Virus record (IMG/VR): IMGVR_UViG_3300035674_000001
Location: 1-64,000 of that record
Source: a virus
Length of the DNA: 64,000 nt
Reading direction: 5' to 3' (one strand)
This document shows positions 2,351-62,635 of this stretch, piece by piece; position 1 is the stretch's first letter, and the number at the start of each line of letters is the position of its first letter. The position numbers and the translations under genes are program-made. The notes under the pieces are model-generated. The model did no database searches. It saw only the letters and a program-made list of their open reading frames with translations, and was not told where the DNA came from.

Positions 2351-2470
2351 GTTGCAAGAATAAAAGGTTTCCTTTTACTGTAGAATCACGTTTAACGTTT
2401 AACTGCTATTATTAGCTTTTTGTCAAATTATCAAGTTATTACGATAGAGCAATTTGAATTAATACTTACC

Positions 2471-2499
2471 TTGACTTTTTCTAAAAGCAGGTTTAGATT
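2471..2499 (+). promoter_or_regulatory. sigma70-like promoter TTGACT-17-TAGATT (CTTGACTTT box) for the 2535..3283 cassette
   Basis: TTGACT at 2471-2476, 17-nt spacer, TAGATT at 2494-2499. It lies in the divergent spacer 2351-2534. A second box on the other strand (AAAGTCAAG, 2514-2522) faces 1598..2350. Confidence 0.45.
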
Positions 2500-2534
2500 A
2501 AAAGAGTCAAATAAAAGTCAAGTTGAGGTTAAAC

Positions 2535-2765
2535 ATGAATCTTTCTTCTGAAGTAGAAATGCAGACCTTGATAGAGCGCATTGAGTCCAGTGCTACTACA
2601 TCAGCAAAGCAAGAAGTTGCAGCAAAGATGAAAGAACTGCATGAGGCTTTTTTAAAGAAAGACAAAGCTGCAATAGCTAAAATATTGCTTGAGATTACAA
2701 CTTGCGAGTATGTTTCTTCTGATCCTCTTTTGAAGAAAATCATAGAGTCAATCCAGGTTTTCTAG
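2535..2765 (+). CDS. small acidic helical protein (unknown function)
   Basis: ATG 2535 is preceded by GAGG (2524-2527); the track start 2523 is TTG. 76 aa. The opposite-strand ORF 2507..2743 is judged a shadow. Confidence 0.55.
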   Translation: MNLSSEVEMQTLIERIESSATTSAKQEVAAKMKELHEAFLKKDKAAIAKILLEITTCEYVSSDPLLKKIIESIQVF

Positions 2766-2830
2766 AGCTAGGCTTGACTTTCATTGAGTTTTTCATTGTG
2801 TTGTTTAGTTAGTTGATTGGAGAGTACATC

Positions 2831-3028
2831 ATGAATTTAGGTAAATTGCTGCTTGGCGAAGTTTATGATGATATTACTGGAGGTGAAGAGCGACAAGAAT
2901 TGTTGAGTGAGCTTAAGCGCTTAGAGGGTGAACTAGAAAACTGGCAAAAAGCTGGTAATACTACTCAGATCACCAGAGTGTCAGGTAACATTAACCTAAT
3001 CAAGCAAAAGTTAGGAATGGAAGACTAG
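2831..3028 (+). CDS. small coiled-coil protein (unknown function)
   Basis: ATG 2831 has GGAGAG 7 nt upstream; the track start 2813 is TTG. Contains ERQELLSELKRLEGELENWQKAG. Confidence 0.6.
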   Translation: MNLGKLLLGEVYDDITGGEERQELLSELKRLEGELENWQKAGNTTQITRVSGNINLIKQKLGMED

Positions 3029-3031
3029 TTT

Positions 3032-3283
3032 GTGTGTAATCAACTAAATCAGCCGGATTACTCAGAACTAATCAAGTTATTTGAAAGGTGTGTTAAAGGA
3101 ATTGAAGAAGCTTTAACAGTACCTAATCTAGACGATGAGCTAAAAGCTTATCTTGAGAATGTAAAAGAACTGGCAACTGAACTGATTGACGCTTTGCTAG
3201 CAGATCCTAGCGTTCCTTCTGATTTTAAAGAAAAGCTGCAAAAGTCTAACGATGAAATAAAGAGGGAGCTAGATCAACAATAG
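3032..3283 (+). CDS. small acidic helical protein (unknown function)
   Basis: GTG start 4 nt after the previous stop. 83 aa, rich in D/E/K/L. Confidence 0.55.
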   Translation: MCNQLNQPDYSELIKLFERCVKGIEEALTVPNLDDELKAYLENVKELATELIDALLADPSVPSDFKEKLQKSNDEIKRELDQQ

Positions 3284-3313
3284 CGCAACTTGACTTTTGC
3301 TAGTTGTTTGTTT

Positions 3314-3350
3314 AATACTCCTCTTGCTACCAAAAAACAGGAGGAGTATT
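3314..3350. terminator. hairpin between convergent genes (putative bidirectional terminator)
   Basis: AATACTCCTC(TTG)...(CAG)GAGGAGTATT inverted repeat. The right arm overlaps the last codons and stop (3327-3329) of the minus-strand gene. T-rich sequence follows about 10 nt later on the plus strand. Confidence 0.5.
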
Positions 3351-3974
3351 ATTGTGTATGTCTTTTTCGTAGGGAACAACATATTCTCCAAAGAATATCC
3401 CAGTATACTGCTTGCTGCCACTACCTTGCGCTCCGGGTGTTTCATCTGAAGCAAAAGTATTACCACGAGGAGAGTTTTGTATTCCCATTAATGCGCTGTG
3501 CAGTTCGACATCTCTGTAAACACCTGTGATGCCAACTGGCTTAAGTAAATCTATTACGTTATCTATGTATTCTTCCCAGTCACATAATAAGCACTCAAGC
3601 TCTAGTGGTTGAGTGTCTGCAACTAGTATTCTTATTTGAACTGTAATTAACTTTTCGCGCCAGTTTAAATTGTTTAACTCTTTATCGAAATCTAATCCAT
3701 TAGTTTTAAGTATCCTTACTCCTCCTTTGGCACCCATATTAGGAGTAATTCGAGAATCATAGTATTTCCAATCAATAGCACCAAGCCTAATAGAATTAGC
3801 TTCGCTTGCTGTAATGTCAGTCCATGTTACCGGGGTATTTGTTTCTAAGTAGTTAATCAATCCACACAAAACCGCAGCAAGCCATGAGCGAGGGGGTTTG
3901 CCAGATTTACCATTGCCATTGCCGCTTGGCGTGCGTTGACGTGGTTGAATAGCAACCTGAGATGAAGTAATCAT
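3327..3974 (-). CDS. virion-module protein (unknown function)
   Basis: 215-aa ORF. Its ATG overlaps the stop of 3971..4510 (ATGA), suggesting translational coupling. Confidence 0.55.
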   Translation of the reverse strand: MITSSQVAIQPRQRTPSGNGNGKSGKPPRSWLAAVLCGLINYLETNTPVTWTDITASEANSIRLGAIDWKYYDSRITPNMGAKGGVRILKTNGLDFDKELNNLNWREKLITVQIRILVADTQPLELECLLCDWEEYIDNVIDLLKPVGITGVYRDVELHSALMGIQNSPRGNTFASDETPGAQGSGSKQYTGIFFGEYVVPYEKDIHNNTPPVFW

Positions 3975-4510
3975 TGTAATCTCAGCTCGTTAAGTTCTTT
4001 GATAATGTTTTGCTCCATTTCAGCAATGGGACTTGTGCTTTTAACGGTCAAGTCTTTATTTAATCCTAGTGGGTTATCATCATTGCGCCATCTGTTTGTG
4101 CCATGCAATCCAATGTGTCGCCTGATTGCATAGGTAGTACGTTTAAGCTCACCTTTTGTTACTTGCTTGTTTGCAAATAACTTGCTTTTAACCCAGCGCT
4201 CTAGTGGATCTTCGGGTGGCATCCCTCCGGCTGGTCTACCAAAGATTTTAGCGTAGGCATTGTCTGATTTGTTCTTGATACTAACAGCAACATCACTAGA
4301 GATTAATTGTCGTCTTGCTTGCTGAAGTACCCAATTTTCAGCTAGTGAATCCTGTGGATCGCTAACACCTCTTGGCGATAAAGCCTTCATCTTATCAATG
4401 GCTTCTTGAGCATTGCTGTTAAATATATTATTTATCTGGGTACGCATCCGCTTATCAAAATCGTACCAAGTAGTTTCTCTGTAGGTTAACTTGAGTTCAG
4501 TTTTTGTCAT
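3971..4510 (-). CDS. possible head-tail joining / tail-completion protein (HK97 gp10-like?)
   Basis: 179-aa ORF with ATG start. Size and the N-terminal pattern (...AQEAIDKMKALSPRGVSDPQDSLAENW...) are reminiscent of gp10-type neck proteins. Weak, by eye only. Confidence 0.3.
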   Translation of the reverse strand: MTKTELKLTYRETTWYDFDKRMRTQINNIFNSNAQEAIDKMKALSPRGVSDPQDSLAENWVLQQARRQLISSDVAVSIKNKSDNAYAKIFGRPAGGMPPEDPLERWVKSKLFANKQVTKGELKRTTYAIRRHIGLHGTNRWRNDDNPLGLNKDLTVKSTSPIAEMEQNIIKELNELRLQ

Positions 4511-4541
4511 ATCATTTAAGGGTGAGTTAAGTTACTTGAAG

Positions 4542-6083
4542 ATGAATTATTACTGCGGAAAGACTGGAAAAGTACCAGTATCGGGTGTTGATTTAATTAA
4601 GTCTACTGAAGGCTTTAGGCACTATGCTTATCCCGATCCTATAACAGGAAGAGAGCCAATAACAATTGGATGGGGTTTTACTAAACGGAGAGATGGTTCT
4701 AACTGGAGAATGGGAGATTATATTTCCAAGGAGGATGCCAATGAATTATTGATAGAGTTAATTGAGCGTGATTATTTACCATCATTACAAAAAATTCCAG
4801 TTTGGAATCAGCTCAACCCTAATCAACAAGGAGCATTGTTGTCATTTGCTTGGAACTTAGGAGCGGACTTTTATGGCAATTTTAATAACTTTGCTACTAT
4901 TACAAGATTGCTTGACGAAAAAGATTGGAGCAGAAATAGAGTAATTAGTACGTTTATTTTGTATCGAAACAAGGGAAGTGCTGTTGAAGAAGGTTTAAAA
5001 GCACGACGCATTGCTGAAGCTGAATTATTCTTGACTCCTTTTGTTGAACATCTAACTAACTTGCACAACTCACAGCAGCTTTCGTTAATTAGTGGTAGTG
5101 CAACTGCTAGGTTTGTTATACGAGTAACCGCCAAGCAAACATGGTTGAAATACAAGGTAGGTAGTGCTGACAGTTTGCCTGCAAGTGAAAAAGTATTGCT
5201 GTTAGAGGGTGATGAGATTGTTTGTACTACATACCAAGACGATGACAATCATATAAGAGTAATGATTGACTTGGAGGCAACTAGGCTACCTCCAAATACT
5301 GCGAGCCAAATTAACAAGCGGTTAGGCTGGTGGAGGCTGTTCAAAGAGCATGTTTTAGTTGAATCTTTATCACCCATATCACTCACAGGTTCAACATCTC
5401 TTCTGGCAGAACAAAGCAACATTAAGGTAACATCTTCAACTCGTTTATCTGGTTTATCTTTAGGTAATGGTTGGGTAAGTCAAATTGTTAAAGCTTGCTT
5501 AGAAAGAGGCGATTTACTTGACGTAGGTAAAGGCTTTTGCAATATCATCTATGTTGAAGGTGCTGACGAATATGGCAACTTAATTGCTAAAACACCAGAT
5601 GCTTGGTTTTCTCGAAGATTGATTGTAGAGATAATTGACGGAAAGCCTTTTATTAGATTGAATGCTCGTGCTAATACCTGTCCTGGTGTGTATTATGTTA
5701 AGAATCCACTAAACAGATTGGGTGGTGCTTATATTAAATTGATTCAACAGCGAGATGCTTGGGTGCTAGGAAGTCATGGAACAACGAAACGCCATCCAGC
5801 GCTTCAGCAAGTTGGAAAAATTATCATTACAAGAGACTTGAATAAAGATTTTAGTAGAATAGGAGATAAAGAATACGTAGGCAGTGAGTTTGCTATTAAT
5901 CATCATTGGGGATATGGGTTAGTTAAAGTTGGTAAAGCTAGTGCTGGGTGTCCAACTGCTCCAGATTGGAACGGACATATGAAGTTTATCAACTTACTTA
6001 AATCAGACAAGCGCATTTCAGGTTCACCCAACAGAAGATGGACTGCAACGTTTATTGATGCTAGTGAGGTCAAGAAAAAGTAG
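4542..6083 (+). CDS. endolysin: N-terminal GH24 (T4/lambda-type) lysozyme plus long C-terminal extension
   Basis: GH24 signature: LIKSTEGFRHYAYPDPITGREPITIGWGFT...NPNQQGALLSFAWNLG. ATG 4542 is preferred over the upstream TTG at 4491. About 350 further residues end in ...FAINHHWGYGLVKVGKASAGCPT. Confidence 0.8.
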   Translation: MNYYCGKTGKVPVSGVDLIKSTEGFRHYAYPDPITGREPITIGWGFTKRRDGSNWRMGDYISKEDANELLIELIERDYLPSLQKIPVWNQLNPNQQGALLSFAWNLGADFYGNFNNFATITRLLDEKDWSRNRVISTFILYRNKGSAVEEGLKARRIAEAELFLTPFVEHLTNLHNSQQLSLISGSATARFVIRVTAKQTWLKYKVGSADSLPASEKVLLLEGDEIVCTTYQDDDNHIRVMIDLEATRLPPNTASQINKRLGWWRLFKEHVLVESLSPISLTGSTSLLAEQSNIKVTSSTRLSGLSLGNGWVSQIVKACLERGDLLDVGKGFCNIIYVEGADEYGNLIAKTPDAWFSRRLIVEIIDGKPFIRLNARANTCPGVYYVKNPLNRLGGAYIKLIQQRDAWVLGSHGTTKRHPALQQVGKIIITRDLNKDFSRIGDKEYVGSEFAINHHWGYGLVKVGKASAGCPTAPDWNGHMKFINLLKSDKRISGSPNRRWTATFIDASEVKKK

Positions 6084-6652
6084 TGCTGTTATTAACAGTT
6101 ATAGACAAAGCTTTATTTTGTGCTGACATTGATCAAGATGGACAGATTGAGTATTCTGAATGTGTAGAAGTATCTGGTCAAATGCTTCTACACGATTACT
6201 GTGAAGCGTCGCCAGGGTGGTATCAGGTAAGTCTGTTTAGACCTATAGGTGATAAAAACTTGTGGCTTGTTCGCTCTTCTGAAGTGAGTATTAAAGAATT
6301 TATAGGTTCTACTGAAATGGAAAATAATCCCTTAGAATCAGCAATTGCTAACTGTAGGCAATTAATGGAATTTGCAATTAAATCTGGTTTTGATTTGCCT
6401 ATTCGTAGAAAGATTTTAGAATATGAAGAGTTTCTAACCCGACTTACTCAAGGTGTTGATCGGCAAGATCGGGAAGTTACTAGTTTTAATTCAATTACTA
6501 ATTTACCAAGCGCTACTGTAAATCCTATTGATTTAGGTAATTTACCGGGTGCTTTTGATCGCTGGAAACAAGAACATGAAGCAGCAGAGATTTTGGATAC
6601 TTTAAGCAAGAGAAAACAGTTTCAGTCTAGCGACAAAAATGATGAGGCGTGA
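6083..6652 (+). CDS. hypothetical protein in lysis cassette
   Basis: GTG start overlapping the endolysin stop (TAGTG). 189 aa, soluble. Confidence 0.5.
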   Translation: MLLLTVIDKALFCADIDQDGQIEYSECVEVSGQMLLHDYCEASPGWYQVSLFRPIGDKNLWLVRSSEVSIKEFIGSTEMENNPLESAIANCRQLMEFAIKSGFDLPIRRKILEYEEFLTRLTQGVDRQDREVTSFNSITNLPSATVNPIDLGNLPGAFDRWKQEHEAAEILDTLSKRKQFQSSDKNDEA

Positions 6653-7046: not shown

Positions 7047-7051
7047 AAAAC

Positions 7052-7357: not shown

Positions 7358-7381
7358 TCTTAGCTATTGCAGCCATCCAGC

Positions 7382-7624
7382 ATGAAAAATAGAGAGAGTG
7401 AAGAAAGCAATGTCAAGATACCTACTGCTTACAACCAAAAAACACTAGAGGTGCTTTGGGGTATTTCAATAATATTAAAATACGATCCCTTTGTAAAAAT
7501 AAGAGTGGCTCAGAATATTATTTATTTTGGAGCCTATAACACAAAAGAGCTAATGTCTGAGAATGAACAAATTAGCATGGAATCGTGGGGATGGCAAAAG
7601 AAAGACAAAAAACTGGGTATATAG
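7382..7624 (+). CDS. hypothetical small protein
   Basis: ATG 7382 (the track start 7367 is TTG). 80 aa. Confidence 0.45.
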   Translation: MKNRESEESNVKIPTAYNQKTLEVLWGISIILKYDPFVKIRVAQNIIYFGAYNTKELMSENEQISMESWGWQKKDKKLGI

Positions 7625-7718: not shown

Positions 7719-7756
7719 TAAATATTTTGATAAAAGTCAAGCTGTTGATTTAAAGC

Positions 7757-12112: not shown

Positions 12113-12832
12113 TCATAGATCGATTGGCACCAATTGATAGACATCATTAACTTTTTGCAGTGCAATGACTTCCTTTTGTCTGATTCGCTCTCTGCTAACT
12201 TCATACTCTTCTCCTATTTCTCTAAGGCTTTTTTTAGGCTTGACAGCAAAGCGATGGCGAAGTATATACTCTTCATCTGAACTCAGCGCTACACATTTAA
12301 CTACATCATTAAACTCGCTTGATTCAAGTAACTTGATAAATGCTCTTACCAAGGGAGCTGATCTAGCATTAAATGCTCTGCCTCCCACAGAAAGCACCAA
12401 TGCTTCAGATAAAGGTAATTGCAACTCTTCAACCCGATAACGCAATGTAGCTGGATTTATCTTTGTAATAGATGCTATATCTTTTAGTTCTAGATCTTTT
12501 AATTCACCATCTACTCTAACCTTATACTTTTTTCCTTCCGTTCTACCTTTAGTAAGCTTATTTTTACCGCCATTAAGGCTGCTGGTGCTGGTTTGAGTTA
12601 TTTGCTTAAATATAGGCTTTCTCCAACCCGCTTCGGTAAAGTAGTCAATAAAAGCCTGGAATTTTGCTTGCTCTTTACTGCTCTCAACAGCCAATTGCTG
12701 AATGTGAGATAGATTGTCTCTAACCCATGTTTTAAATCCAGATTTATTTTTACTTGTATCAATACACAGTAAGGCATTTTTTTGTTTTAATGCTCCAATA
12801 GGGATTAAGTTATCATTGACTAGACTTTTCAT
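12113..12832 (-). CDS. DNA-binding protein with C-terminal sigma-70 region-4-like HTH
   Basis: The C-terminus (SSDEEYILRHRFAVKPKKSLREIGEEYEVSRERIRQKEVIALQKV) matches the region 4.2 pattern (...LxEIGxxxxVSRERIRQIExxAL.KL). A second HTH-like segment is LKDIASITKINPATLRYRVE. No region 2 recognised. Confidence 0.5.
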   Translation of the reverse strand: MKSLVNDNLIPIGALKQKNALLCIDTSKNKSGFKTWVRDNLSHIQQLAVESSKEQAKFQAFIDYFTEAGWRKPIFKQITQTSTSSLNGGKNKLTKGRTEGKKYKVRVDGELKDLELKDIASITKINPATLRYRVEELQLPLSEALVLSVGGRAFNARSAPLVRAFIKLLESSEFNDVVKCVALSSDEEYILRHRFAVKPKKSLREIGEEYEVSRERIRQKEVIALQKVNDVYQLVPIDL

Positions 12833-12891: not shown

Positions 12892-12909
12892 CAACTTGTT
12901 TAATGTCAA
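12881..12909 (-). promoter_or_regulatory. sigma70-like promoter TTGACA-17-TAAACT nested in the terminator, serving 12113..12832
   Basis: On the minus strand: TTGACA (12909-12904), 17-nt spacer, TAAACT (12886-12881). The -10 lies inside the first arm of the hairpin. Confidence 0.5.
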
Positions 12910-12929
12910 GAGAGTATTGCTAACTGAAG

Positions 12930-14000: not shown

Positions 14001-14028
14001 ATTCTATGTCTGTTTTGATAAAAGTCAA
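14001..14028 (-). promoter_or_regulatory. sigma70-like promoter TTGACT-16-TAGAAT (CTTGACTTT box) for the ERF gene
   Basis: On the minus strand: TTGACT (14028-14023), 16-nt spacer, TAGAAT (14006-14001). ATG at 13967. Confidence 0.55.
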
Positions 14029-14056
14029 GTCACGAACAAGTTAGTAGCAAATAAAT

Positions 14057-16344: not shown

Positions 16345-17151
16345 TTAGTTGATTGAGCTAGACTTATCTTGATTTACTTCTAAAACCCAACCATCTTCTG
16401 TTTCGCACAATTGCACGGTGAAAGTCAAGTTGAATTCATTAAATCGCTTAATGTAAAGTTTAGCCTGGTCAATGGCTTTAAGAGAAATCATTTCTCTTAT
16501 TTTTGTGAGCTGAGATTCAGTATCTAGTACCGTCATTGTTGGTTTGCCATTAGGCAAGATAGCTAATTCTGCACAGGGATAAAACCCTTGTATCTTAATT
16601 GCCATAAGCTCAGGAATTTTTTGCCACATAGATGGCGGCATTTTATTCAAGCTACTAATAAATAAATTTAGTTTAGATCTAAGACCGGGTGCTTGAAGGG
16701 ATATGGCACGTCTAGCTATATCTTGATTATCACTCAAGTATCTAGCATGATTTACTGTTTTAGCGATTTCTTGTTCTACTTGTTTTCGGTGTTGCTCTTT
16801 ATCTTCAAGCTCTTTACATTTTAGATAAATCTCATGCGTCAGTTCCCAGTTTGACTGTTGTAAGATGCGAATAGCATGAATTCTGGGACTTTTAGGGTCA
16901 AGCTCTTTGCCAAACCATTTAATATAGAGCTTGATAAACCAGTCTTGAACTATTGGGTAGTTTTCACTGCCATTTTTTGTTCGCCACTGTCTAACCCAAG
17001 GCATTTCTTTTCTTGCCATAGACAGCCGAAGCTTTTCATCTGCCACCCTTGCAGAGCTAGTAGAATGAGCTAATTCTGCATAAATGTCTTCAGGAGAAAC
17101 AGTAGTGCTATCTAGTTTTGCTCTTAACTCAGATGTTTTTTCTTCTTGCAT
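16345..17151 (-). CDS. hypothetical replication-module protein
   Basis: ATG 17151 is preferred over the TTG at 17166. 268 aa. Lies directly upstream of dnaB; a helicase-loader role is only a positional guess. Confidence 0.45.
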   Translation of the reverse strand: MQEEKTSELRAKLDSTTVSPEDIYAELAHSTSSARVADEKLRLSMARKEMPWVRQWRTKNGSENYPIVQDWFIKLYIKWFGKELDPKSPRIHAIRILQQSNWELTHEIYLKCKELEDKEQHRKQVEQEIAKTVNHARYLSDNQDIARRAISLQAPGLRSKLNLFISSLNKMPPSMWQKIPELMAIKIQGFYPCAELAILPNGKPTMTVLDTESQLTKIREMISLKAIDQAKLYIKRFNEFNLTFTVQLCETEDGWVLEVNQDKSSSIN

Positions 17152-19183: not shown

Positions 19184-19229
19184 GTAAGATTAACAAACAA
19201 CAAAAACTTGACTTTCGTTAAATTGAATT

Positions 19230-21380: not shown

Positions 21381-21472
21381 TCTTTTTTCCTTTTACTAAT
21401 CAGCAACAAACAACTTAATTAAAGGCAGCATAAAGTATCAAGTACGCGCCACTTGACTTTGCAATAATCAAC

Positions 21473-27988: not shown

Positions 27989-28034
27989 AAAAGTATTTGT
28001 TTTACGAAAGTCAAGGCTATTAGGCTAGTAGCAG

Positions 28035-34055: not shown

Positions 34056-34111
34056 TTGCAACTTATATGTAAACTACTTGACTTTAGTTTAACTTGACTC
34101 TCTGCGCTAAA

Positions 34112-38054: not shown

Positions 38055-38082
38055 AGCTTAAAACATTATCAACAAAAGTCAA
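38055..38082 (-). promoter_or_regulatory. sigma70-like promoter TTGACT-16-TAAGCT (CTTGACTTT box) for 37564..38025
   Basis: On the minus strand: TTGACT (38082-38077), 16-nt spacer, TAAGCT (38060-38055). It lies just after the terminator at 38097-38123. Confidence 0.45.
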
Positions 38083-38096
38083 GCTGAGTACAGAAA

Positions 38097-40202: not shown

Positions 40203-42503
40203 TCAGACTTGCTTCAGGTTGGCTTCACCCCAAGCAAACAAATCACCTTGCGCCGATTCTTTTTCAGCACGTCCCATGTTTTTCAGTGCCTCATTGAAAT
40301 AGCTTTCTTTGAGTTCAATGCCAAGGTACTTTCTTGATTGCTTGATTGCTTGGTATCCTGTAGAACCAATACCGTTAAATGGATCAAGCACTAAGTCGCC
40401 AGGATTAGACCATAGCTGGATTGAGCGTTCAATTACCTGGAGCTGAAGAGGTGCAATATGCCTTTCATCACTATCTTCTTTGGCAAACCGACCAGTCAAC
40501 GTGTCCGATGGGTTAATATCCATCCACACAGGCGAAGCATAGCGCTGCCAAACTTCAACACTATTTCGCTGCACGTCACCAACTAACTTGATATCGTCGC
40601 TGCCAGCATAGTAGGTTAATTCACCAGTAATTGGCTCAGGATTGTTTCCTGGTTTACGAAAAACAACAAGGGTATCGGGTATCCCTTGGCGACTCATTGC
40701 ACTATCTTTAACTACTTGTTTATGCAACAGTCCTAGCGCTTTAGTTCGCTGCATAGCTTGCACTGGATTTTTCCAGATGCAAACTTCACTGTGATAAATC
40801 CAGTCTTTTGACTGAAACATACGAATCACGTCACCCCGAAAGTCTCGTAACCCAATGTAGCCATCTCGCGACTTAAGGGTAGGTAGATTCATGAGATGAA
40901 CAGCGCATAATCGACCGGGTATCGTAATGCGATAAAGTTGCTCTACTAAATAATCAAAATGAGCTGCAAACTGCTCATCACCTGTACAGTTACCTATGTC
41001 ACGAACTGAGCTTGAGTACACGTACAGATTAGCAAAGGGGATTGATGTCACTGTTAGATGTATACAGTTATCTGGCAACTTAGTTGTTATTTCAACACAG
41101 TCCCCTAGATAAAGAGTCCAGTCCTGTCCTTGTTTAACAGTTGTTTTGTATTCCATTTCACTTCTTTCTAGTGACATTTGCTGAACTTGAGTTGCCTTTG
41201 CCATTTCGTTTACCATTTGCTTTGCCATCTCATCTGCCTCTGTTTGCTTTCTTTGTAAGTTACGAGCAATAGCGCTTTCTAGCTTGTCGTAAACCAGATA
41301 AACAGTAACGTCACACTTTTGACCAAATCTGTAGCATCGTCCTACTGTCTGATGGAAGCTTTCCCATGAATGATTCAGACCCACAAATGCCATGTTGTGA
41401 CAATTTTGCAGGTTTAAACCAAAGCCAAACATACTTGGCTTACTGATAAGTACTCGCTTCTTACCTGATGTAAAGTCAAGAACTGCCTGCTCTTTATGTT
41501 CGTCAGAATCACTGCCTTTTACTTCTACAGCATCAGGAATCAATTGAGTTAGCAGCTTAGACTCATCATTGAGATCGCACCAAACTAACCATTGCTCGTT
41601 GCTTGGATTAACTAACTTAGCCGTCTCTTCGCATCGTTGCTTGAGTGTTTGTTTTTTGACATGACGCTGCTCACTTAAAGAAGATGCTTCATAGAAGAAT
41701 AATGCGCCATCAGGTGGTTCAATTTGAGTTTCAATGGTATGGTGAATTATTTCCAGATTAGGCAACACATACGCCTTGTCGGTTTCGGTAAAACCTAGGT
41801 CACCAGGACGCCGAAACATCAATGACCAAGATGCTACCCACTCCCAGAATCGAGCTTGAGCATGTTTCTTGAGTCTCCACTGCGATGTTTTCCCGCCATC
41901 GTGGGTAAAAAACATCGCCAGCATTTCTTCGCGCGTTAACGCACCCACCCATTCAGAATGGTTGCCTAGCTCCATGTAGTCGTTTGGTGCAGGGGTAGCC
42001 GTACAGGCTAGCTTATAAGGAGTAGATGCAAAGCTTTCAAGTAGCTCACTAGTTGTTTTGCTCTCAAAGTGTTTGATGCAAGATGACTCATCAAGCACAA
42101 CTCCCGCAAACTGACTAGCATCAAACCTGGCTAGTTTTTCGTAGTTCGTGATAAAGATGTTGCCATTATGATCTGCAATATCTTCTGGGTTAGCAACATA
42201 CTTGACTGAGATGCCAAACTTTTCACCCTCACGAACAGTTTGCTGCGTTACTGCTAGGGGTGCGAGTATTAGTACTTTGCCTCCCGTGTATTTTGCAACG
42301 TGAAAACTCCATTCAAGTTGCATAAGCGTCTTACCTAGTCCTACACCAGCAAATAAACAATACTTGCCTTTGGCTAGTGCAGTTTTAACAGCAAACTGCT
42401 GGAAATCAAACAAGGATGGGTTTAATTTATGTTCTTCAACAGTAAAGCCAGATGGTTTGACTACAATGCGTTTTTGCTCAAGAAAGTCTTGATAATTGCT
42501 CAT
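40203..42503 (-). CDS. SNF2-family helicase fused to a C-terminal beta-class N6A/N4C DNA methyltransferase
   Basis: Helicase motifs: GVGLGKT (I), VVLDESSCIKH (II), ACTATPAPNDYMELG (III), FGFGLNLQ (V), QTVGRCYRFGQ (VI). Methylase motifs: TSIPFA (IV) then LVLDPFNGIGSTG (I). Start ATG 42503 (MSNYQDFLEQK) is preferred; alternatives are 42533 and 42560. Confidence 0.85.
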   Translation of the reverse strand: MSNYQDFLEQKRIVVKPSGFTVEEHKLNPSLFDFQQFAVKTALAKGKYCLFAGVGLGKTLMQLEWSFHVAKYTGGKVLILAPLAVTQQTVREGEKFGISVKYVANPEDIADHNGNIFITNYEKLARFDASQFAGVVLDESSCIKHFESKTTSELLESFASTPYKLACTATPAPNDYMELGNHSEWVGALTREEMLAMFFTHDGGKTSQWRLKKHAQARFWEWVASWSLMFRRPGDLGFTETDKAYVLPNLEIIHHTIETQIEPPDGALFFYEASSLSEQRHVKKQTLKQRCEETAKLVNPSNEQWLVWCDLNDESKLLTQLIPDAVEVKGSDSDEHKEQAVLDFTSGKKRVLISKPSMFGFGLNLQNCHNMAFVGLNHSWESFHQTVGRCYRFGQKCDVTVYLVYDKLESAIARNLQRKQTEADEMAKQMVNEMAKATQVQQMSLERSEMEYKTTVKQGQDWTLYLGDCVEITTKLPDNCIHLTVTSIPFANLYVYSSSVRDIGNCTGDEQFAAHFDYLVEQLYRITIPGRLCAVHLMNLPTLKSRDGYIGLRDFRGDVIRMFQSKDWIYHSEVCIWKNPVQAMQRTKALGLLHKQVVKDSAMSRQGIPDTLVVFRKPGNNPEPITGELTYYAGSDDIKLVGDVQRNSVEVWQRYASPVWMDINPSDTLTGRFAKEDSDERHIAPLQLQVIERSIQLWSNPGDLVLDPFNGIGSTGYQAIKQSRKYLGIELKESYFNEALKNMGRAEKESAQGDLFAWGEANLKQV

Positions 42504-43555: not shown

Positions 43556-44044
43556 TTACTCACCTTTGCCTAAACTTGACTTTTTCATATTACTGGACAT
43601 TTTAGCCAAATGAAAGCTTTTAAGTGTTGTTTCTGGATTAGTTAATAGCGCATCACCTCTATGGTAAACAACGGCACCTCCAGTATTAGTACCAGACAAC
43701 TTAGTTAAAGCCTCAAAAAGCTTCTTGCTTTGTTTGTCAGTTAAGTAGAGAGTGGCGGGTTTGCAGCCATAGGGACATTTCATTTTCGGCGCAACATTGC
43801 CAAACAATCGACAAATTAAAGGACGATGTTCGTAAATGGTACATCTACCTTCAACTAAAGCAGAACATGAGCCTTTCGCTTCGTTATAACTGGGAACCTC
43901 TAACCCAGCATCTCTAATAGCATTTGCTTCAGCAGGATAAAGAGGAATAAGTGTACAGCCTGAAGAGCAGTAGCCTTTGCAATTCAATGCTGGTACTTGA
44001 TCGTAAACATCCTTTAGGGTTCTAAGCTTAGGCGGTTTAGTCAT
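43556..44044 (-). CDS. YkgJ-type (UPF0153) cysteine-cluster protein
   Basis: CKGYCSSGC...CSALVEGRCTIYEHRPLICRLFG matches the CxxCxxCC / C.iY..RP..CR.f pattern. Confidence 0.6.
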   Translation of the reverse strand: MTKPPKLRTLKDVYDQVPALNCKGYCSSGCTLIPLYPAEANAIRDAGLEVPSYNEAKGSCSALVEGRCTIYEHRPLICRLFGNVAPKMKCPYGCKPATLYLTDKQSKKLFEALTKLSGTNTGGAVVYHRGDALLTNPETTLKSFHLAKMSSNMKKSSLGKGE

Positions 44045-44191
44045 AGTCCAATAACATAATTGACTTTAGTTGTTAATCCAGTCTAGCTGTTTCTGGCGAG
44101 CTAGTTAGGTTTAGTTATGCTAACAAGAGGTGGCAACATTAAAGACAAGGCTTTTAACTTGACTTTTACGGCATTGAATGTCAGTCTAATA

Positions 44192-45298: not shown

Positions 45299-45392
45299 CC
45301 TTTATTCATCTAATAGCATAACACTTGCATTGATTTAGCTAATTTTTTCACTTAAAATACTACAAGCAATCTTGACTTTCTTTTTAAGAGTT

Positions 45393-49673: not shown

Positions 49674-49750
49674 GAGGAAAGTCAAGCAAGTTTTCGGAAA
49701 GTTTAAGGAAAGCTTAAAGAAAACATTGAGTTAAAGGAGAGTGAAAAGAG

Positions 49751-52475: not shown

Positions 52476-54065
52476 ATGAAAACCAACAAAATTAAGCTTT
52501 ATTTGTTAATAGGGGGAGAGTTAGCTACGGGTATTTTACTTTTATGCTCAGCTATTCAAACTTACCCGGTAAAATATGCACAACAAGTACAGCTAGACAG
52601 GTTTAAAGGAAGTATTAGCAATCCAGCTAATGTGCCTAGTAGTTTCGCTCCCTTTTTGGCTTTACTTGGTATTGTAGCAACGGGAGATAGTGTAAGGCGA
52701 TTCTGGGGAAGTTTTGATAGCGAACTGGGAATCAACTCTAGTTCTAGTCAATTTAGCAATCAAGTTGAACCTTCAACTCATCAGCCAGTAACACAGCAAG
52801 TATCATCGGTAACACCAGTAAAGCCAGAACAAGTCATTCCTCAAGTAACTTACAAGCCTAGATTAATTACTCCACAAACAAGTAGTGTTGACAATCAATC
52901 GTTAGCTCAACCAAGATCAACTCCGACTGCTGCTCAGGTTTCTGCGCTGCCACCATTGCCAGTATCAGCACCAGTTGTTGCTCCAGTAAGACCTAGAAGA
53001 CAAACCCAAAGAGTTAAGTCTGTAGCCACGCTTGACATAAATGCATTTGCAAAGAACAAGCTTTCGTGTGTATTTGCAGGCGCACCCAGGACAGGGAAAA
53101 GCACAACTCATCTAACATGGATGGCAAAAAAGATAGAAGCTGATCCTGAAGTGTCATTTAGGGTTGTCACACAAAAAAAGAATAGTTTTTTAGGTCTTAA
53201 CCAAATTCCAGAAGTAGTGCAGATTGCGTCACGCAATAATAGTTATGCACCAGTATTCTGGCAAACGTTATACGTTTGGAATGAACTGCAAGCTCGGCTC
53301 GAACTAGAAGAGGATGAGCGAGACTCTTTAAGTGAATGCTGGCTGGTGTTAGATGACTGGTATAGTATTGTTGCCAACCTAGAAATCTACAAGCCTTCTA
53401 CTAAAGTAGGACAAGCTTGGAATATTTGCAAAGGACAGTTTAGTGACATTATCACTTTGGGTGCTGAATACGGAGTAGGCATCAGTGCCAACACTCATAC
53501 GCTAAACCTTGCTCACTTTGGATTAGCAGAAGACTCAAATATTAGAAGCGTTTTGAGCATTTGTGTAATGGGTAGAATTCATACGTCTGAGGGAAGAAAA
53601 GAAGGGGGATTTGATGCAATTACTAATGCACTTAGAAACCCCTACTTAATAGATGACTCATACGCTCAGTATATTCGAGAAAGATTTCCTGAGCTTAAAG
53701 CCTACTCGCTTGAAACAGGCTTACCTATTGTACTTTCCACAATGGGTGAACCTGAATTAAGCGTAATGCCGGACTTGAGCTGGATTAAAAATTACAGAGT
53801 TGCCATTGATCCAGAAGCCACGGTTGAATATCTCGAAACTTTAATTCAGCAAGACAACCAAATTAGTAGTGAGGATAAAAACAGTGAAGACTATTGGCAA
53901 GAAAAACAGCATCAGAATGAAGTTATCGCTAGTACTGGCATCAACTCTGACTGGTTGCTACCTCATGCTAGCAACCAAGCTACTAAAGAACTTGACTTTC
54001 AAGAAGAAAATGATGAGACTTACGAATTTGAAGATGAGGAATTAGAAGATGAATCCAATGGATAA
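52476..54065 (+). CDS. membrane-anchored P-loop NTPase, FtsK/SpoIIIE/TraB-like architecture
   Basis: Two N-terminal TM helices and a P/S/Q/V-rich linker. Walker A: VFAGAPRTGKST. Walker B: CWLVLDDW. Later segments LGAEYGVGISANTH and SVLSICVMGR lie in the positions expected for FtsK-type motors. The C-terminus is acidic. Confidence 0.5.
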   Translation: MKTNKIKLYLLIGGELATGILLLCSAIQTYPVKYAQQVQLDRFKGSISNPANVPSSFAPFLALLGIVATGDSVRRFWGSFDSELGINSSSSQFSNQVEPSTHQPVTQQVSSVTPVKPEQVIPQVTYKPRLITPQTSSVDNQSLAQPRSTPTAAQVSALPPLPVSAPVVAPVRPRRQTQRVKSVATLDINAFAKNKLSCVFAGAPRTGKSTTHLTWMAKKIEADPEVSFRVVTQKKNSFLGLNQIPEVVQIASRNNSYAPVFWQTLYVWNELQARLELEEDERDSLSECWLVLDDWYSIVANLEIYKPSTKVGQAWNICKGQFSDIITLGAEYGVGISANTHTLNLAHFGLAEDSNIRSVLSICVMGRIHTSEGRKEGGFDAITNALRNPYLIDDSYAQYIRERFPELKAYSLETGLPIVLSTMGEPELSVMPDLSWIKNYRVAIDPEATVEYLETLIQQDNQISSEDKNSEDYWQEKQHQNEVIASTGINSDWLLPHASNQATKELDFQEENDETYEFEDEELEDESNG

Positions 54066-57233: not shown

Positions 57234-57761
57234 ATGCACGAACAAGATTTTACTACCAATGCCGACAGCACCGAAAAGCAGTTTCAGGAGACAATCAGTG
57301 AAAAGATATACACGATGAGTGTTCGACAAGGAGTGAAACTAGGAGCAATTGCTAAAAAGTTTAATATTAGCATTAGCCAAGTGCAAAAACACATAGAAAG
57401 TTATATTGACAGAGAACTAATACCAAAAGTCAAGCTTGGCACTGAACGGTGTAGAGCAATGCAGCTCTACGAGCTAGAACAGATGGGAATCTTTCTGGGA
57501 GCTTGCATTCAGAATCAAATGAAAAGAGCAGCAGACGATCCAGACAACATCAAGATTGATGGCAGAATCATGGAGCTGTATCACAAAAATATCTTGCAGC
57601 GAGCTAAATTACTTGGTACAGAAATTGTTCAGTCTGCTCCGCTGAACCCGTCAGACAATGACTTTCCGGTTACTATTAACGAGTCAGACATGCAGACTCT
57701 TGCGGAGTTATCTGACGATGAACTGCAAAAGAGGTATCTTGAAACTTTGGCTCAAGGTTGA
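57234..57761 (+). CDS. HTH protein; possible small terminase subunit or regulator
   Basis: HTH: VKLGAIAKKFNISISQVQKHI, followed by helical segments. No small-terminase candidate lies next to terL. Weak. Confidence 0.3.
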   Translation: MHEQDFTTNADSTEKQFQETISEKIYTMSVRQGVKLGAIAKKFNISISQVQKHIESYIDRELIPKVKLGTERCRAMQLYELEQMGIFLGACIQNQMKRAADDPDNIKIDGRIMELYHKNILQRAKLLGTEIVQSAPLNPSDNDFPVTINESDMQTLAELSDDELQKRYLETLAQG

Positions 57762-60010: not shown

Positions 60011-60096
60011 CTAGCTAACAATCAACTTTTCATCGCTCTCGTCAATTACTTTAATTGAAAGTTGCTGAAAGTCAAGTTAGTAATTAACTTGCTTGG

Positions 60097-60651
60097 TTAA
60101 ATAAAAACTTGGTCTGAACAAATAATACTCCTGTCAGATAAGCGTGGTATTGCTACAGCGTGAGCAAATCCTCGGTCAAGCCAAACGATGCGTTGCTGAA
60201 TTGTTTTGCTTATTACTGGCTCGTTAAAATCAACCGAAATACCATTATGAGCGTATTGAGAAAGGCTCATCAAAGGATGAAGTTTTATGGGTAAAAACAC
60301 AGCCATGACTTGCTTGTCTGGAGAATCATACCAACCAACAAAGTAATCCCATTCTAGTAATAGCTCATTAACGTAAGTTAGTCTTCTTTTAAATACAGGT
60401 ATCCATTCAAGTGTAGAATTTTCCATAAATGTAAAGTCAAGACATATACTAATAACATCTCGCAGCTCTTGAGTAGTGTAGCCATGAGCTTCAATTAGCT
60501 GGTTCTGTTCTATATATCGCAGGATGTAGTATTCAGTGTGATTAGCTTGATTAAAGGGTACAGTATGAATCTTTGCGGCGTCTCTAGCAATATCAAGCAG
60601 CGTATTATACAATCGCTCGTTAATTTGTTCTTTAGTTTGTGCTGTTGTCAT
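60097..60651 (-). CDS. hypothetical protein, paralogue of 60849..61430
   Basis: Shared blocks with the paralogue: ELIEAHGYTTQELRDVISICLDFTF vs ELLIERYTAQAIRDAIAACIDLVF; VGWYDSPDKQVMAVFLP vs VGWYEDKSNQLFAVDLP; RIVWLDRGFA vs RYRWLELGFA. Confidence 0.55.
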   Translation of the reverse strand: MTTAQTKEQINERLYNTLLDIARDAAKIHTVPFNQANHTEYYILRYIEQNQLIEAHGYTTQELRDVISICLDFTFMENSTLEWIPVFKRRLTYVNELLLEWDYFVGWYDSPDKQVMAVFLPIKLHPLMSLSQYAHNGISVDFNEPVISKTIQQRIVWLDRGFAHAVAIPRLSDRSIICSDQVFI

Positions 60652-60848: not shown

Positions 60849-61430
60849 TTACCACCCATTAATATAAGACTTGTTATAGTGATCACAGCACATAATAGTT
60901 CCTCTAATTTGCCACATTGATACAGGCGGAGCAAATCCTAACTCTAGCCACCTATAGCGGTCAATATCTACTATTTTGCCTTCTCCTTTAACTGTACCTG
61001 AATTAATATATAACATTGGCAAGTCAACAGCGAATAGTTGATTGCTCTTATCTTCGTACCAGCCTACACAATGCCTTTGGTAATATCTGTCAGATTTACC
61101 AAAGGCTGTTTTATAAGTATCTATATCATTAACATCAAGTCTTAGCTTGAAGTCAGCTAGCCATTGAGCTGGAAACAGTATAAATACCAAATCTATACAA
61201 GCTGCAATAGCATCTCGAATTGCTTGAGCTGTGTATCTCTCAATCAAAAGTTCAGTTTTAATAAAAACATTCAAATCATGCTCTAAGAGAATCATCGGGG
61301 TATGATGAGCATCTACTTTTATGTATTTAGCCGCTTTTTCAACTAACTTGATAATTGCATCATAGTAATGTGATTCTAATTCTGATAACAGGTCTTCGAC
61401 TTCTGTCTTAAGCTGATCTTCGGCTGTCAT
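60849..61430 (-). CDS. hypothetical protein, paralogue of 60097..60651
   Basis: 193 aa. See the shared blocks listed under 60097..60651. Confidence 0.55.
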   Translation of the reverse strand: MTAEDQLKTEVEDLLSELESHYYDAIIKLVEKAAKYIKVDAHHTPMILLEHDLNVFIKTELLIERYTAQAIRDAIAACIDLVFILFPAQWLADFKLRLDVNDIDTYKTAFGKSDRYYQRHCVGWYEDKSNQLFAVDLPMLYINSGTVKGEGKIVDIDRYRWLELGFAPPVSMWQIRGTIMCCDHYNKSYINGW

Positions 61431-61452
61431 TATTTATCCTGCTTTTACTAAG

Positions 61453-62033
61453 TTACTTATTTTTATTGATCCAGTTAGTGGCTAACTCAAAATCATCTAG
61501 GTTTGCTAAGTTATATACTTTCACTCCATACTTACTTGCAACTCGAGTTGCTTGACCAGTACCGCCAGTTTTTACACTGGTTTCATTTGCTGACTTAGTG
61601 CTATTGAGAGTCCAGCAGATTACAAATCCTGAATGAGCAGTAAGAGTCGAGCCTAGTATTTGGAAAACATTGCGAGTGTGAAGTCTGCGGCTATAGTCAT
61701 TTAGGTTTTGCCAATTAGGGTGTGCATCGCTAGCTATTTCTATCACTTGTGACAATAAACTTTCTTGGTAGTTGTATTCTCAGTATTCACCCTTGTTGGT
61801 CACTTGATACCAGTAGTCAGCTTTGAATATTTGCTTTGTGCCTTCTACTTGATTGCATCCCTGCTCAAATGACAAATCAGCTCCCTTGGCTCCACCGCTG
61901 CGCAGTACACAACCCCGCAGTGCTAGCTGCTTGCCTAATTGAAACATTACATCACATATTTGACTAGAGTTTCACGACTGCCAATACCTGCATAAAAGAT
62001 AATGGGTTTGGGGATAACTGGATTAATAGCCAT
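61453..62033 (-). pseudogene. disrupted DprA/SLOG-like Rossmann gene (one frameshift plus one in-frame TGA)
   Basis: Hand translation gives three pieces. MAINPVIPKPIIFYAGIGSRET then shifts frame near 61966. SQICDVMFQLGKQLALRGCVLRSGGAKGADLSFEQGC...NKGEY ends at TGA (61782-61780), in frame with the track ORF 61453..61755 (...HPNWQNL...FVICWTLNS...TGGTGQATRVA...VKVYNL). The track shows no long ORF here. Confidence 0.6.
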
Positions 62034-62063
62034 ACGGCAAGGTTTAAATATTACGCTACTGTT

Positions 62064-62091
62064 ATCTTATGAGTATTTTAGCAAAAGTCAA
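62064..62091 (-). promoter_or_regulatory. sigma70-like promoter TTGACT-16-TAAGAT (CTTGACTTT box) upstream of the decayed gene
   Basis: On the minus strand: TTGACT (62091-62086), 16-nt spacer, TAAGAT (62069-62064). Confidence 0.45.
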
Positions 62092-62114
62092 GCTTGCTAT
62101 AATCATGAGTCTTA

Positions 62115-62154
62115 GCAATAAAAATACTTGAGTGGTTACATTCACTCAAGTATT
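62115..62154 (-). terminator. rho-independent terminator on the minus strand with no gene upstream of it
   Basis: 12-bp stem AATACTTGAGTG / CACTCAAGTATT, followed on the minus strand by TTTTATTG. Confidence 0.65.
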
Positions 62155-62159
62155 AAATA

Positions 62160-62451
62160 CCTATTCGCCTCTATTAGATTAACTCAACTTCATCTAGTCC
62201 TAAAATTAGCTCTAGACCAGTTTCACCGTTTTGATCCGGCTCTCCCTCGCAAATAACGGAAGGAAAATGAAGAACAGCGAGAGAGAGTTAAGAGAGAATG
62301 AGTGGGAAGGTGAAAAATAGGCGAAATAGAGAAAGTCAGGTTAGTTGAAAAGCTGTAGTAAATGCGTTGTGGATAGGGGGTGGTAGAGTGAAACAAAAAG
62401 AGACAAACAGGGGTGTGATGAGACGAGATGGTGAACATGATGAAAGTCAAG
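62160..62451 (-). ncRNA. candidate pyrimidine-rich non-coding transcript
   Basis: Bounded by a CTTGACTTT box (minus orientation, 62451-62443) and the terminator at 62115-62154. The minus strand is strongly C/T-rich. The only ORF (62223..62450) starts on the TTG of the box and has an implausible S/T/F/L/H/P composition. Confidence 0.25.
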
Positions 62452-62606
62452 TTGGTTGAATAGTGTGGTTCTGTTGTTTGTAGCTTGTTTAGCCGTTACC
62501 ACATTCATGTACATTTTGCAAGTTTTCCCGTTCCCCCTACAAAAATCCTTCGGCGGAATCTTTATAGCATCTCCTTCAAAATTTCACAGAAAACCTCTAT
62601 CAAAAC

Positions 62607-62635
62607 TTGACTTTCACTGAGTAGTTCCCGATAAT
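62607..62635 (+). promoter_or_regulatory. sigma70-type promoter TTGACT-17-GATAAT (CTTGACTTT box) for the 62692 gene
   Basis: TTGACT at 62607-62612, exact 17-nt spacer, GATAAT at 62630-62635. ATG lies 57 nt downstream. Confidence 0.65.

Follow-up and report, generated by a model that had tools for sequence, protein, structure and literature searches.

We found that the window, a 64,000-nt stretch of DNA from a little-sampled cyanobacterial phage, contains 24 exact copies of the 9-mer CTTGACTTT on its two strands. Our preferred, though tentative, explanation is that this 9-mer serves as a dual-use promoter/operator box, and that its most likely reader would be the sigma region 4 protein encoded at 12113-12832. 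This explanation draws directly on the enrichment of the box, its placement, the statistics of the -10 hexamers downstream of it, one conserved promoter, and the sigma region 4 domain.

In dinucleotide shuffles of the window, CTTGACTTT is expected 1.42 times, with 5 as the largest value among the shuffles, and a Markov-3 model gives an expectation of 2.2. The enrichment of the exact box is 17-fold, that of its one-off variants as a class (43 observed vs ~30 expected) 1.4-fold. The enrichment claimed by the first-pass annotation is borne out by this comparison, and so is its suggestion that conservation extends past the hexamer, the extended box, the 12-mer AACTTGACTTTC, being found 6 times vs 0.05 expected. 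All 22 exact copies that had been listed are present, but two coding copies, 57426(-) and 60433(-), had been overlooked, and three coordinates were off by one, the correct ones being 7733 (not 7732), 34077 (not 34078), and 43575 (not 43576). The one-mismatch copies are likewise present (34093, 42520, 44059, 49619, 55081, and 57778), and the previously missed 12902(-), which reads CTTGACATT, has to be added to them.

Judged by greedy ORF calls made for this analysis, strict non-coding DNA amounts to 4351 nt, or 6.8% of the window. Fourteen copies lie wholly within it vs 0.12 expected (binomial p = 5e-11), and the density of the box per kb is 24 times that in coding DNA, which agrees with the intergenic bias noticed earlier. 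Because four further copies (44158, 45371, 62443, and 62606) overlap solely doubtful N-terminal extensions or tiny ORFs, the earlier figure of 18 non-coding copies is a reasonable one, and about 18 is also what we obtain after discounting doubtful ORF starts. It was an overstatement that the box marks almost every intergenic spacer: just 14 of the 38 gaps of at least 30 nt hold an exact copy, and about 19 of the 38 hold one with at most one mismatch. Exact copies are equally frequent in convergent (3/7) and divergent (3/8) gaps, and with respect to transcription their orientation is weakly biased (12:5, p = 0.07).

The core of the box, TTGAC, is the -35 hexamer that sigma region 4 reads. About 9-11 boxes face a gene and are followed, at 16-18 nt, by a -10 hexamer resembling TAnnnT. 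At spacers of 15-19, the best -10 score averages 1.26 at boxes vs -0.21 at control intergenic positions (p = 0.003), and a strict TAnnnT at spacer 16-18 follows 5 of the 24 copies vs a background of 5.6%. The presence of a -10 is associated with a T directly after the box (Fisher p = 0.015); we refer to boxes followed by T as class I and to those followed by C as class II. Among class I, box 2470..2478 (+), in a divergent gap, has TAGATT at 2494-2499 (spacer 17) and a plus-strand gene ahead that starts at ~2523/2535. Box 14021..14029 (-), which reads TTGACT-16-TAGAAT (14001-14006), is the putative promoter of the ERF recombinase gene 12930-13967, and box 38075..38083 (-), TTGACT-16-TAAGCT, lies 49 nt upstream of gene 37564-38025, with a terminator hairpin and T-run 10 nt before it. 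Box 62084..62092 (-), TTGACT-16-TAAGAT (62064-62069), faces the minus-strand operon starting at 61947 and adjoins an extended -10, TGCTATAAT, on the plus strand (62096-62104). Box 2514..2522 (-), also of class I, has a weak -10, TAATCT, at spacer 15, and the gene ahead, 1598-2350 (-), is 163 nt off. Box 62606..62614 (+) reads TTGACT-17-GATAAT (62630-62635), with a plus-strand gene starting after 62644 ahead. The first-pass annotation was thus right that several copies are -35-like, and the -10 elements it had pointed out at 2470, 14021, 38075, 62084, and 62606 are all found at proper spacing.

The sigma region 4 gene itself has a putative promoter of this kind, TTGACA-17-TAAACT, built on the variant box CTTGACATT at 12902..12910 (-). 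The same architecture, CTTGACATT with TTGACA-17-TAGATT, is kept upstream of the homologue in L004, the sole relative found, a 1.2-kb contig with 51% protein identity. In unrelated IMG/VR phages, the same 9-mer is separated from a downstream TATAAT or TACAAT by exactly 17 nt, and 36% of the boxes at the fetched IMG/VR loci have TAnnnT at 16-18 nt. The copies with a spaced -10, the promoter conserved in L004, and the 9-mer before TATAAT in unrelated phages make CTTGACTTT a good -35 context that is shared beyond this phage. To call it a phage-specific box rather than a generic host promoter was therefore too strong: lambda PR' has TTGACT as its -35, too (PMC4604602), and no fewer than nine of the copies here resemble ordinary sigma70-type promoters.

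Eight of the 18 non-coding copies are excluded as the -35 of an annotated gene: two near starts, three against transcription, and three in convergent gaps. Box 19207..19215 (+), of class II, lies 25 nt past a 16-bp terminator-like hairpin and is not the -35 of the RusA-like gene because it ends just 14 nt before the ATG at 19230; for the same reason box 45371..45379 (+), also of class II, which ends 13 nt before the ATG at 45393, is not the -35 of the helicase gene. Both starts are fixed by domain matches (a PHROG match from residue 12 and a ResIII match from residue 25, respectively), and the earlier remark that these copies are too close to serve as a -35 stands. Of those against transcription, box 21452..21460 (+) lies between two minus-strand genes, lacks a -10, and is followed after 2 nt by a 9-bp hairpin. 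Box 34077..34085 (+), between minus-strand genes and anti-oriented, comes immediately after the -10 of a separate promoter on the gene strand, TTGATT(34110-34115)-18-TAAACT(34086-34091), and has the near-copy CTTGACTCT beside it (34093-34101). Similarly, box 49678..49686 (-), anti-oriented between plus-strand genes, is 4 nt past the -10 of a canonical promoter on the gene strand, TTGACA(49645-49650)-17-TAGTAT(49668-49673), with the near-copy TTTGACTTT at 49619-49627(-). In the convergent gaps, box 3289..3297 (+) is 5 nt past the stop of the plus-strand gene 3032-3283, its -10 (TAATAC/AATACT) overlaps the 5' arm of a 15-bp hairpin, and a promoter there would fire antisense to gene 3327-3974. 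Box 7733..7741 (-) is 42 nt past the stop of the minus-strand gene 7784-8197, and its -10, CATACT at spacer 17, falls within the 5' arm of a long hairpin. Box 60068..60076 (-), 20 nt past the stop of the minus-strand gene 60097-60651, reads TTGACT-16-TAAAGT (60048-60053) and as a promoter would fire antisense to the methylase gene.

The other non-coding copies include three of class II. Box 2773..2781 (+) lies between plus-strand genes and is without a convincing -10, and box 62443..62451 (-), without a -10, falls in a ~700-nt region (61948-62643) lacking a convincing ORF. Box 28007..28015 (-), for which no -10 is seen at 15-19 nt, is in a divergent gap: the head operon (26317-27870) lies 136 nt downstream of it, and on the opposite strand the ATG of an XRE-type HTH gene (28035-28388) follows after 19 nt. 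Box 44158..44166 (+) sits in the doubtful N-terminal extension of ORF 44117-44683, near the near-copy ATTGACTTT (44059-44067). Two coding copies, both co-oriented with their gene, have the 12-mer form AACTTGACTTTC: 16421..16429 (-), in the 3' part of gene 16345-17166 and 112 nt upstream of the DnaB gene, and 53991..53999 (+), in the final 75 nt of gene 52476-54065, with gene 54049-54630 starting 49 nt further on. Box 43575..43583 (+) is anti-oriented within the final 28 nt of the minus-strand gene 43556-44044. The remaining ones are mid-gene, 41472..41480 (-), in a helicase-methylase gene, and 60433..60441 (-) being co-oriented and 57426..57434 (-) anti-oriented.

Sigma region 4 makes its base contacts mainly with TTGAC, as seen in the structure of region 4 on -35 DNA, and one of the DNA-binding proteins listed by the first-pass annotation proved to carry this TTGAC-reading domain. 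ORF 12113..12832 (-) encodes 239 aa with a C-terminal sigma-70 region 4 domain (residues ~167-229, helix VSRERIRQKEVIALQKV; match to Sigma70_r4, E = 2.9e-9), and its N-terminal 165 aa are almost orphan. Among solved structures it matches region 4 of RpoD/SigA best, with an identical RERIRQ, and its predicted fold matches 1KU7 (sigma region 4 on -35 DNA), the AlphaFold model being poor (pLDDT 58). This protein is a candidate box reader because its region 4 is primary-sigma-like. No phage RNA polymerase, sigma region 2, or MotA/AsiA was seen in the window. Region 4 alone does not account for the invariant flanks, a C before the core and TTT behind it.

According to the explanation we prefer, CTTGACTTT would be the phage's fixed version of the -35, a TTGAC core with invariant flanks. 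Roughly half of the copies would act as the -35 of two-hexamer promoters for host RNA polymerase with a primary-type sigma; most of these have a T after the box and face a gene, with a TAnnnT-like hexamer at a distance of 16-18 bp. The others, mostly with a C after the box and without a -10, would be those placed 13-14 nt before starts, inverted beside the -10 of another promoter, or between stop and terminator hairpin in convergent gaps. Since about half of the copies are promoter-like and the rest stand where a promoter would make no sense, a DNA-binding protein probably also reads the box, which may then double as a protein-binding site, operator or roadblock. We infer that this reader would be the 12113-12832 protein, whose copy of primary-sigma region 4 has the -35-contacting residues intact; it may bind the box, and its binding may regulate transcription.

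A simpler possibility, which we consider somewhat doubtful, is that (nearly) every intergenic copy is a host-sigma -35, that the box is kept exact by selection for very strong promoters, as with those of T5 or the T4 early genes, and that the convergent and antisense copies drive antisense or small RNAs. The TTGAC core, the spacing of 17 nt between the 9-mer and TATAAT in unrelated phages, and the enriched -10 scores at boxes are all in keeping with this. Antisense RNAs are known from phages, lambda OOP being one, and the wrong-way copies could be promoters of such RNAs, as those at 3289, 7733, and 60068 have an acceptable -10. A consensus that reaches past the canonical elements is also seen in T4 early promoters (PMC2988021). 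However, 7-9 non-coding copies lack a usable -10 within the spacer range 15-19, and boxes 19207 and 45371 end too near verified start codons. Furthermore, of the two elements, sigma70-type promoter sets normally conserve the -10 better, whereas here the -35 is invariant over 9-12 bp and the -10 loose, and one-off variants are barely enriched.

It seems unlikely that the box is instead an operator or stoperator for a different phage regulator, for example the XRE-family HTH protein 28035-28388, used as in L5-like mycobacteriophages to silence transcription or set its timing, with the -35 resemblance relevant only where a site overlaps a promoter. About 24 asymmetric sites in promoters and short intergenic spaces would resemble the L5 repressor sites (PMC9283540), the XRE-type repressor-like gene lies close to box 28007, and boxes 34077 and 49678 are at the start region of other promoters. 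Yet the box is asymmetric and mostly solitary, whereas HTH proteins of the XRE type usually bind as dimers to sites with dyad symmetry. Its orientation is not uniform, its -35 consensus core is left unexplained, and the window yielded neither an L5-type repressor homologue nor an integrase. Very improbable is a non-transcriptional role, whether as a site for a phage DNA methyltransferase or a restriction system, as a signal for replication or priming, or as a site bound by a packaging or nucleoid protein: although the box is asymmetric and exact, and two N6/N4 methyltransferases, a DnaB-type helicase, and an ERF recombinase are encoded in the window, methylation, restriction or priming motifs would not be expected to be 24 times denser outside coding DNA, nor to come with -10 hexamers at promoter spacing or to be conserved as a promoter ahead of a relative's gene.

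The T4 proteins gp55 and gp33 carry only part of a sigma factor, and ORF 12113-12832 likewise encodes a partial one. In T4, DNA is read by the region-2-like gp55 and not by gp33, whereas the protein here has region 4 alone, with no region-2 partner found in the window. The promoter-type copies resemble the sigma70-type promoters of T4 early genes and lambda PR' in their TTGAC(T) -35, 16-18 bp spacer, TAnnnT-like -10, extra conserved bases around the hexamer, and reliance on host polymerase with no phage polymerase (PMC2988021, PMC4604602). The set of boxes here differs in that about half of its members have a loose -10 or none while the -35 region is invariant over 9-12 bp, and in that several copies cannot serve any annotated gene. 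T4 also has a 9-bp box set by the phage, the MotA box, in the -35 region of many of its promoters; a phage protein reads it and host sigma still reads the -10 (PMC2988021), and the phage reader here is a candidate. The MotA box (TTTGCTTTA type), however, takes the place of the -35, with its centre at -30 and a distance of 12 +/- 1 bp to the -10, and MotA promoters require an excellent -10; the box here is a canonical -35 at 16-17 bp, and the window has no MotA/AsiA homologues. In cluster A mycobacteriophages, the L5 gp71-type operators and stoperators are read by a monomeric phage protein (PMC9283540). Those sites are 13-mers rather than a 9-mer, and here orientation is weakly tied to transcription and the candidate reader is a sigma region 4 domain rather than an L5-type repressor. 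In copy number per genome the two are similar: more than 20 short asymmetric sites are spread genome-wide over promoter regions and short intergenic spaces in the L5 system (PMC9283540), and 24 copies are found here in 64 kb.

The 9-mer box CTTGACTTT, a TTGAC core with C before it and TTT after it, occurs in 24 copies on the two strands of the window, compared with an expectation of 1.42 in dinucleotide-shuffled sequence (at most 5 in any shuffle) and of 2.2 under a third-order Markov model. A greedy ORF map with 84 ORFs covers 93% of the window and leaves 4351 nt (6.8%) as strict non-coding DNA, which holds 14 copies versus 0.12 expected, a density 24 times that of coding DNA. Chance or base composition as the source of the enrichment is ruled out by the shuffle count and this non-coding bias. 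Four more copies lie only inside doubtful ORF extensions, giving 18 non-coding copies in all; of the six copies that are truly coding, three are within 80 nt of a gene 3' end. The first-pass annotation, which had proposed both the enrichment and the intergenic bias, had located 22 of the 24 copies, missing 57426(-) and 60433(-) and giving three coordinates off by one. Its statement that the box marks almost every intergenic spacer was overstated, as an exact copy is present in only 14 of the 38 gaps of at least 30 nt (3 of 8 divergent, 8 of 23 tandem and 3 of 7 convergent gaps). The conservation it noticed beyond the hexamer is borne out by the 12-mer AACTTGACTTTC, with 6 copies versus 0.05 expected. 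Furthermore, the exact box is ~17-fold enriched, whereas its 27 one-off variants pooled are only ~1.4-fold enriched (43 versus ~30). A literature search with the 9-mer returned primers only.

TTGAC is the core of the -35 consensus, and in all 24 copies TTGACT equals TTGACA at five of six positions. Among the 18 non-coding copies, the best -10 score at spacers 15-19 has a mean of 1.26, versus -0.21 at other intergenic positions (p = 0.003), and a strict TAnnnT lies 16-18 bp downstream of 5 of the 24 copies versus a background of 5.6%. Good two-hexamer promoters are seen at boxes 2470 (spacer 17, -10 TAGATT), 14021 (spacer 16, TAGAAT), 38075 (spacer 16, TAAGCT), 60068 (spacer 16, TAAAGT), 62084 (spacer 16, TAAGAT) and 62606 (spacer 17, GATAAT), and weaker candidates at 2514, 3289, 7733 and 44158; the -10 elements reported earlier were recovered at 2470, 14021, 38075, 62084 and 62606. 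TTGACT is also the -35 of lambda PR' (PMC4604602). Foreign boxes were gathered by an IMG/VR scan for inverted pairs of the 9-mer, and in unrelated phages it stands exactly 17 nt upstream of TATAAT or TACAAT, in 6 of 6 copies at the locus L121 and in further examples at L109, L041 and L019; of all fetched boxes, 36% have TAnnnT at 16-18 nt versus a background of ~6%. Because unrelated phages pair the 9-mer with a -10 at promoter spacing, the box is a generally good -35 context and not, as the first-pass annotation had suggested, one phage's private invention. Generic sigma70-like sites show no excess in positions 1-20000 (35 versus 49 in shuffles), and therefore a generic consensus scan would not single out the boxes. 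One unrelated IMG/VR contig (L029, 3300028591_003663) carries 10 copies at 13409-13595 and 26-124, mostly as tandem 11-13 bp repeats (ATCTTGACTTT) grouped at both contig ends, which look more like iterons or terminal repeats than promoters.

The main rival to a dual use of the box is that every copy is a plain promoter, with antisense or small RNAs as the product of some. Since three of the "wrong-way" copies have acceptable -10 hexamers, we regard this as only somewhat unlikely. Of the 18 non-coding copies, about 9-11 are accompanied by an acceptable -10 and 7-9 have none at spacers 15-19, and ~10 face a gene at a distance that accommodates a start site and leader. The position-wise information content around the boxes revealed no fixed -10 and no second shared motif: apart from a T near +23, only a weak YRYTAAAA follows the box. 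Sigma70-type promoter sets normally show the reverse of this combination of a loose or missing -10 and a -35 region invariant over 9-12 bp. A -10 is present in 7 of 8 non-coding copies with T after the box (class I), versus 2 of 10 with another base (Fisher p = 0.015), and the foreign IMG/VR promoters with the box are mostly of the T type.

Several copies are placed where a promoter for the neighbouring gene does not fit. The end of box 19207 is separated by 14 nt from ATG 19230, a start fixed by a RusA-like match from residue 12, and that of box 45371 by 13 nt from ATG 45393, with a ResIII domain from residue 25. About 27 nt are needed from a -35 to the start site, and thus these two boxes cannot serve the downstream genes, in agreement with the first-pass annotation. 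Leaderless mRNAs at 19207 and 45371 were considered and rejected, the box-to-hexamer spacing of 5 nt being unfit and 45371 being without TAnnnT, as was an RNA-level role of the box, its distances to start codons being irregular (13 to 163 nt). Boxes 21452, 34077 and 49678 are anti-oriented to their flanking genes. On the gene strand, another promoter, TTGATT-18-TAAACT, has its -10 directly ahead of box 34077, and box 49678 lies 4 nt after TTGACA-17-TAGTAT; the placement of both is operator-like. Boxes 3289, 7733 and 60068 occupy convergent gaps, closely flanked upstream by the stop codon of the co-oriented gene and downstream by a hairpin. In the gaps 3289-3350 and 7689-7741, a long hairpin follows 15 nt after the box with the putative -10 within its 5' arm, a promoter-inside-terminator layout shared with the region upstream of the gene described below, ORF 12113-12832 (-). 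Three boxes lie in 61948-62643, ~700 nt with no convincing ORF and no Rfam match, where an extended -10 TGCTATAAT at 62096-62104 (+) adjoins box 62084. A purine-rich tract (~62230-62430) and, at 62122-62154, a perfect 12-bp hairpin are found there too, and the stretch may serve as a control region, as an origin or as a locus for non-coding RNA.

The window is phage DNA, encoding a portal (PF06381), major capsid protein (PF09950), cement protein, DUF2213 head protein, lysozyme, DnaB-type helicase, ERF recombinase, RusA-like resolvase and two N6/N4 DNA methyltransferases. A large terminase-like protein without a Pfam match of its own has 46.5% identity to a 596-aa gene directly upstream of the portal in L001, a more distant relative (19 kb, 44% portal identity, 0 boxes). 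No phage RNA polymerase, full sigma factor, tRNA or Rfam family was found in the 64-kb window. Megablast found no close relatives in phage and plasmid collections, and there was no match for the portal in IMG/VR, for a portal profile in GTDB representative genomes and JGI metagenomes, or for the back-translated N-terminal peptide of ORF 1598-2350 in metagenomes. The nearest proteins are in a Phormidium sp. metagenome-assembled genome (GCA_036567165.1; portal 67% identity, ORF 1598-2350 86%), and L001 is rich in the cyanobacterial HIP1 repeat GCGATCGC (13 copies, plus 18 of the overlapping CGCGATCG), so that the host is very probably a filamentous cyanobacterium, as judged from these sequence affinities. 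Unlike the 19-kb L001, the 64-kb window lacks GCGATCGC. A helicase-methyltransferase fusion (40203-42560 (-)) is 54.8% identical to a Synechococcus phage S-CBS3 gene, its type being widespread with 474 matching phage records from many hosts, and a superfamily-2 helicase (45372-47426 (+); ResIII and Helicase_C) has a C-terminal DnaJ (J-domain) match, an unusual fusion. The palindrome CAACTNAGTTG is over-represented as well: allowing one mismatch, there are 18 sites versus 3.4 expected, nearly all intragenic (for example 21469, 27046, 30884, 41076, 46858 and 57209). It may be a target of methylation or restriction, or else signal recombination.

A candidate reader of the box is encoded by ORF 12113-12832 (-), a 239-aa protein, here called sigma4 protein, with a C-terminal Sigma70_r4 domain (PF04545, E = 2.9e-9, residues 183-228). 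A PDB sequence search returned sigma factors only, the best being RpoD/SigA region 4 with an identical RERIRQ, and the recognition helix reads VSRERIRQKEVIALQKV against VTRERIRQIE(V/A)KALRKL in primary sigmas. The residues reported to touch the -35 bases in the structure of region 4 on DNA (R584, E585, R586, R588 and Q589 in E. coli numbering) are without exception identical. Foldseek gave region 4 matches only, including 1KU7, region 4 on -35 DNA (rmsd 2.3 A over 62 aligned columns), albeit with a poor AlphaFold model (pLDDT 58) whose N-terminal domain had no structural match. Neither sigma region 2 nor a full-length sigma match is present; because the NCBIfam sigma models cover only the last ~50 residues and score far under their cut-offs (16-33 bits versus 43-800), the protein is not a sigma factor. 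A sigma4 profile had no match in genomes and IMG/VR, and the N-terminal 165 aa gave five distant hits among 1.8 billion representative proteins, none full length outside its own family; two of the five, of 1213 and 1008 aa, are long proteins in which partial matches recur 6-8 times.

The relatives' fragments (L001, L002, L004 and L124) end before the homologous gaps or are too divergent, and comparison was possible for the sigma4 gene promoter only. Upstream of this gene, TTGACA-17-TAAACT is provided by the variant CTTGACATT at 12902(-). In L004, its sole relative (51% protein identity), CTTGACATT is kept at the same place as TTGACA-17-TAGATT and the remainder of the spacer has diverged, one comparative datum which supports a real promoter here. 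Between the ERF and sigma4 genes, a 19-bp terminator-like hairpin with a T-run (12849-12892) includes the promoter -10 (TAAACT) in its 5' arm; therefore, read-through RNA would fold the terminator and promoter-started RNA would not. L004 has a different hairpin at this position.

As a free protein that carries an unaltered -35-reading domain, and with 24 invariant boxes of -35 type in the same genome, sigma4 protein is an obvious candidate binder of the boxes, although region 4 alone would not account for the invariant flanking C and TTT. The mechanism we consider most likely is a dual use of the box, in which class I copies would serve as -35 elements of promoters read by host polymerase, and the remaining copies, possibly the promoter copies too, would be bound by a phage protein, with sigma4 protein as the best candidate; the bound protein would time or silence transcription in the manner of an operator or roadblock. 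Promoter boxes conserved across a phage are already a known type of feature, met here in an unsampled lineage; what is unusual is the exactness of the box, the misplacement of some copies and an orphan protein with a sigma region 4. On account of these three features, we tentatively propose, as a rather doubtful possibility, that the phage captured a primary-sigma region 4, now joined to an orphan N-terminal domain, and that this free "sigma4" reads its own invariant boxes, competing with or replacing host sigma region 4 at promoters and acting as roadblock or operator elsewhere, a sigma-mimic regulator with genome-wide stoperator-like sites. If sigma4 protein does bind the non-promoter copies, this would be a new mode of phage transcription control, with a detached copy of the host's -35 reader serving as a site-specific regulator. 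If the box is only a promoter element, the gain would be useful but ordinary: for a cyanobacterial phage lineage that has hardly been sampled, a ready promoter map plus a -35 module both strong and portable.

Among known systems, sigma70-type promoters share with the box a -35 hexamer close to TTGACA, and an acceptable -10 goes with about 9-11 of its 18 non-coding copies. The T4 MotA box is the closest analogue as a phage-defined box in the -35 region (PMC2988021). However, it is centred at -30, 12 +/- 1 bp from an excellent -10, whereas here, where a -10 is present, the TTGACT spacer of 16-17 bp is true -35 geometry, and Pfam scans of all 84 ORF calls and PHROG scans of 20, over 64 kb of genome, found no MotA or AsiA homologues. 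The L5-type repressor recognizes more than 20 asymmetric 13-mers, in promoters as operators and in short intergenic spaces as stoperators (PMC9283540). The monomeric gp71-type repressor (HTH and stoperator domain) of this temperate-phage system is absent from the Pfam and PHROG hits in the window, where no integrase was found either. In L5 the orientation of the sites is strictly tied to transcription; the bias here is weak, with 12 co-oriented versus 5 anti-oriented copies among the informative ones (p = 0.07). In layout, the L5 system is the closest analogue of the 24 exact copies described here, of which 14-18 lie in gaps and some overlap promoters.
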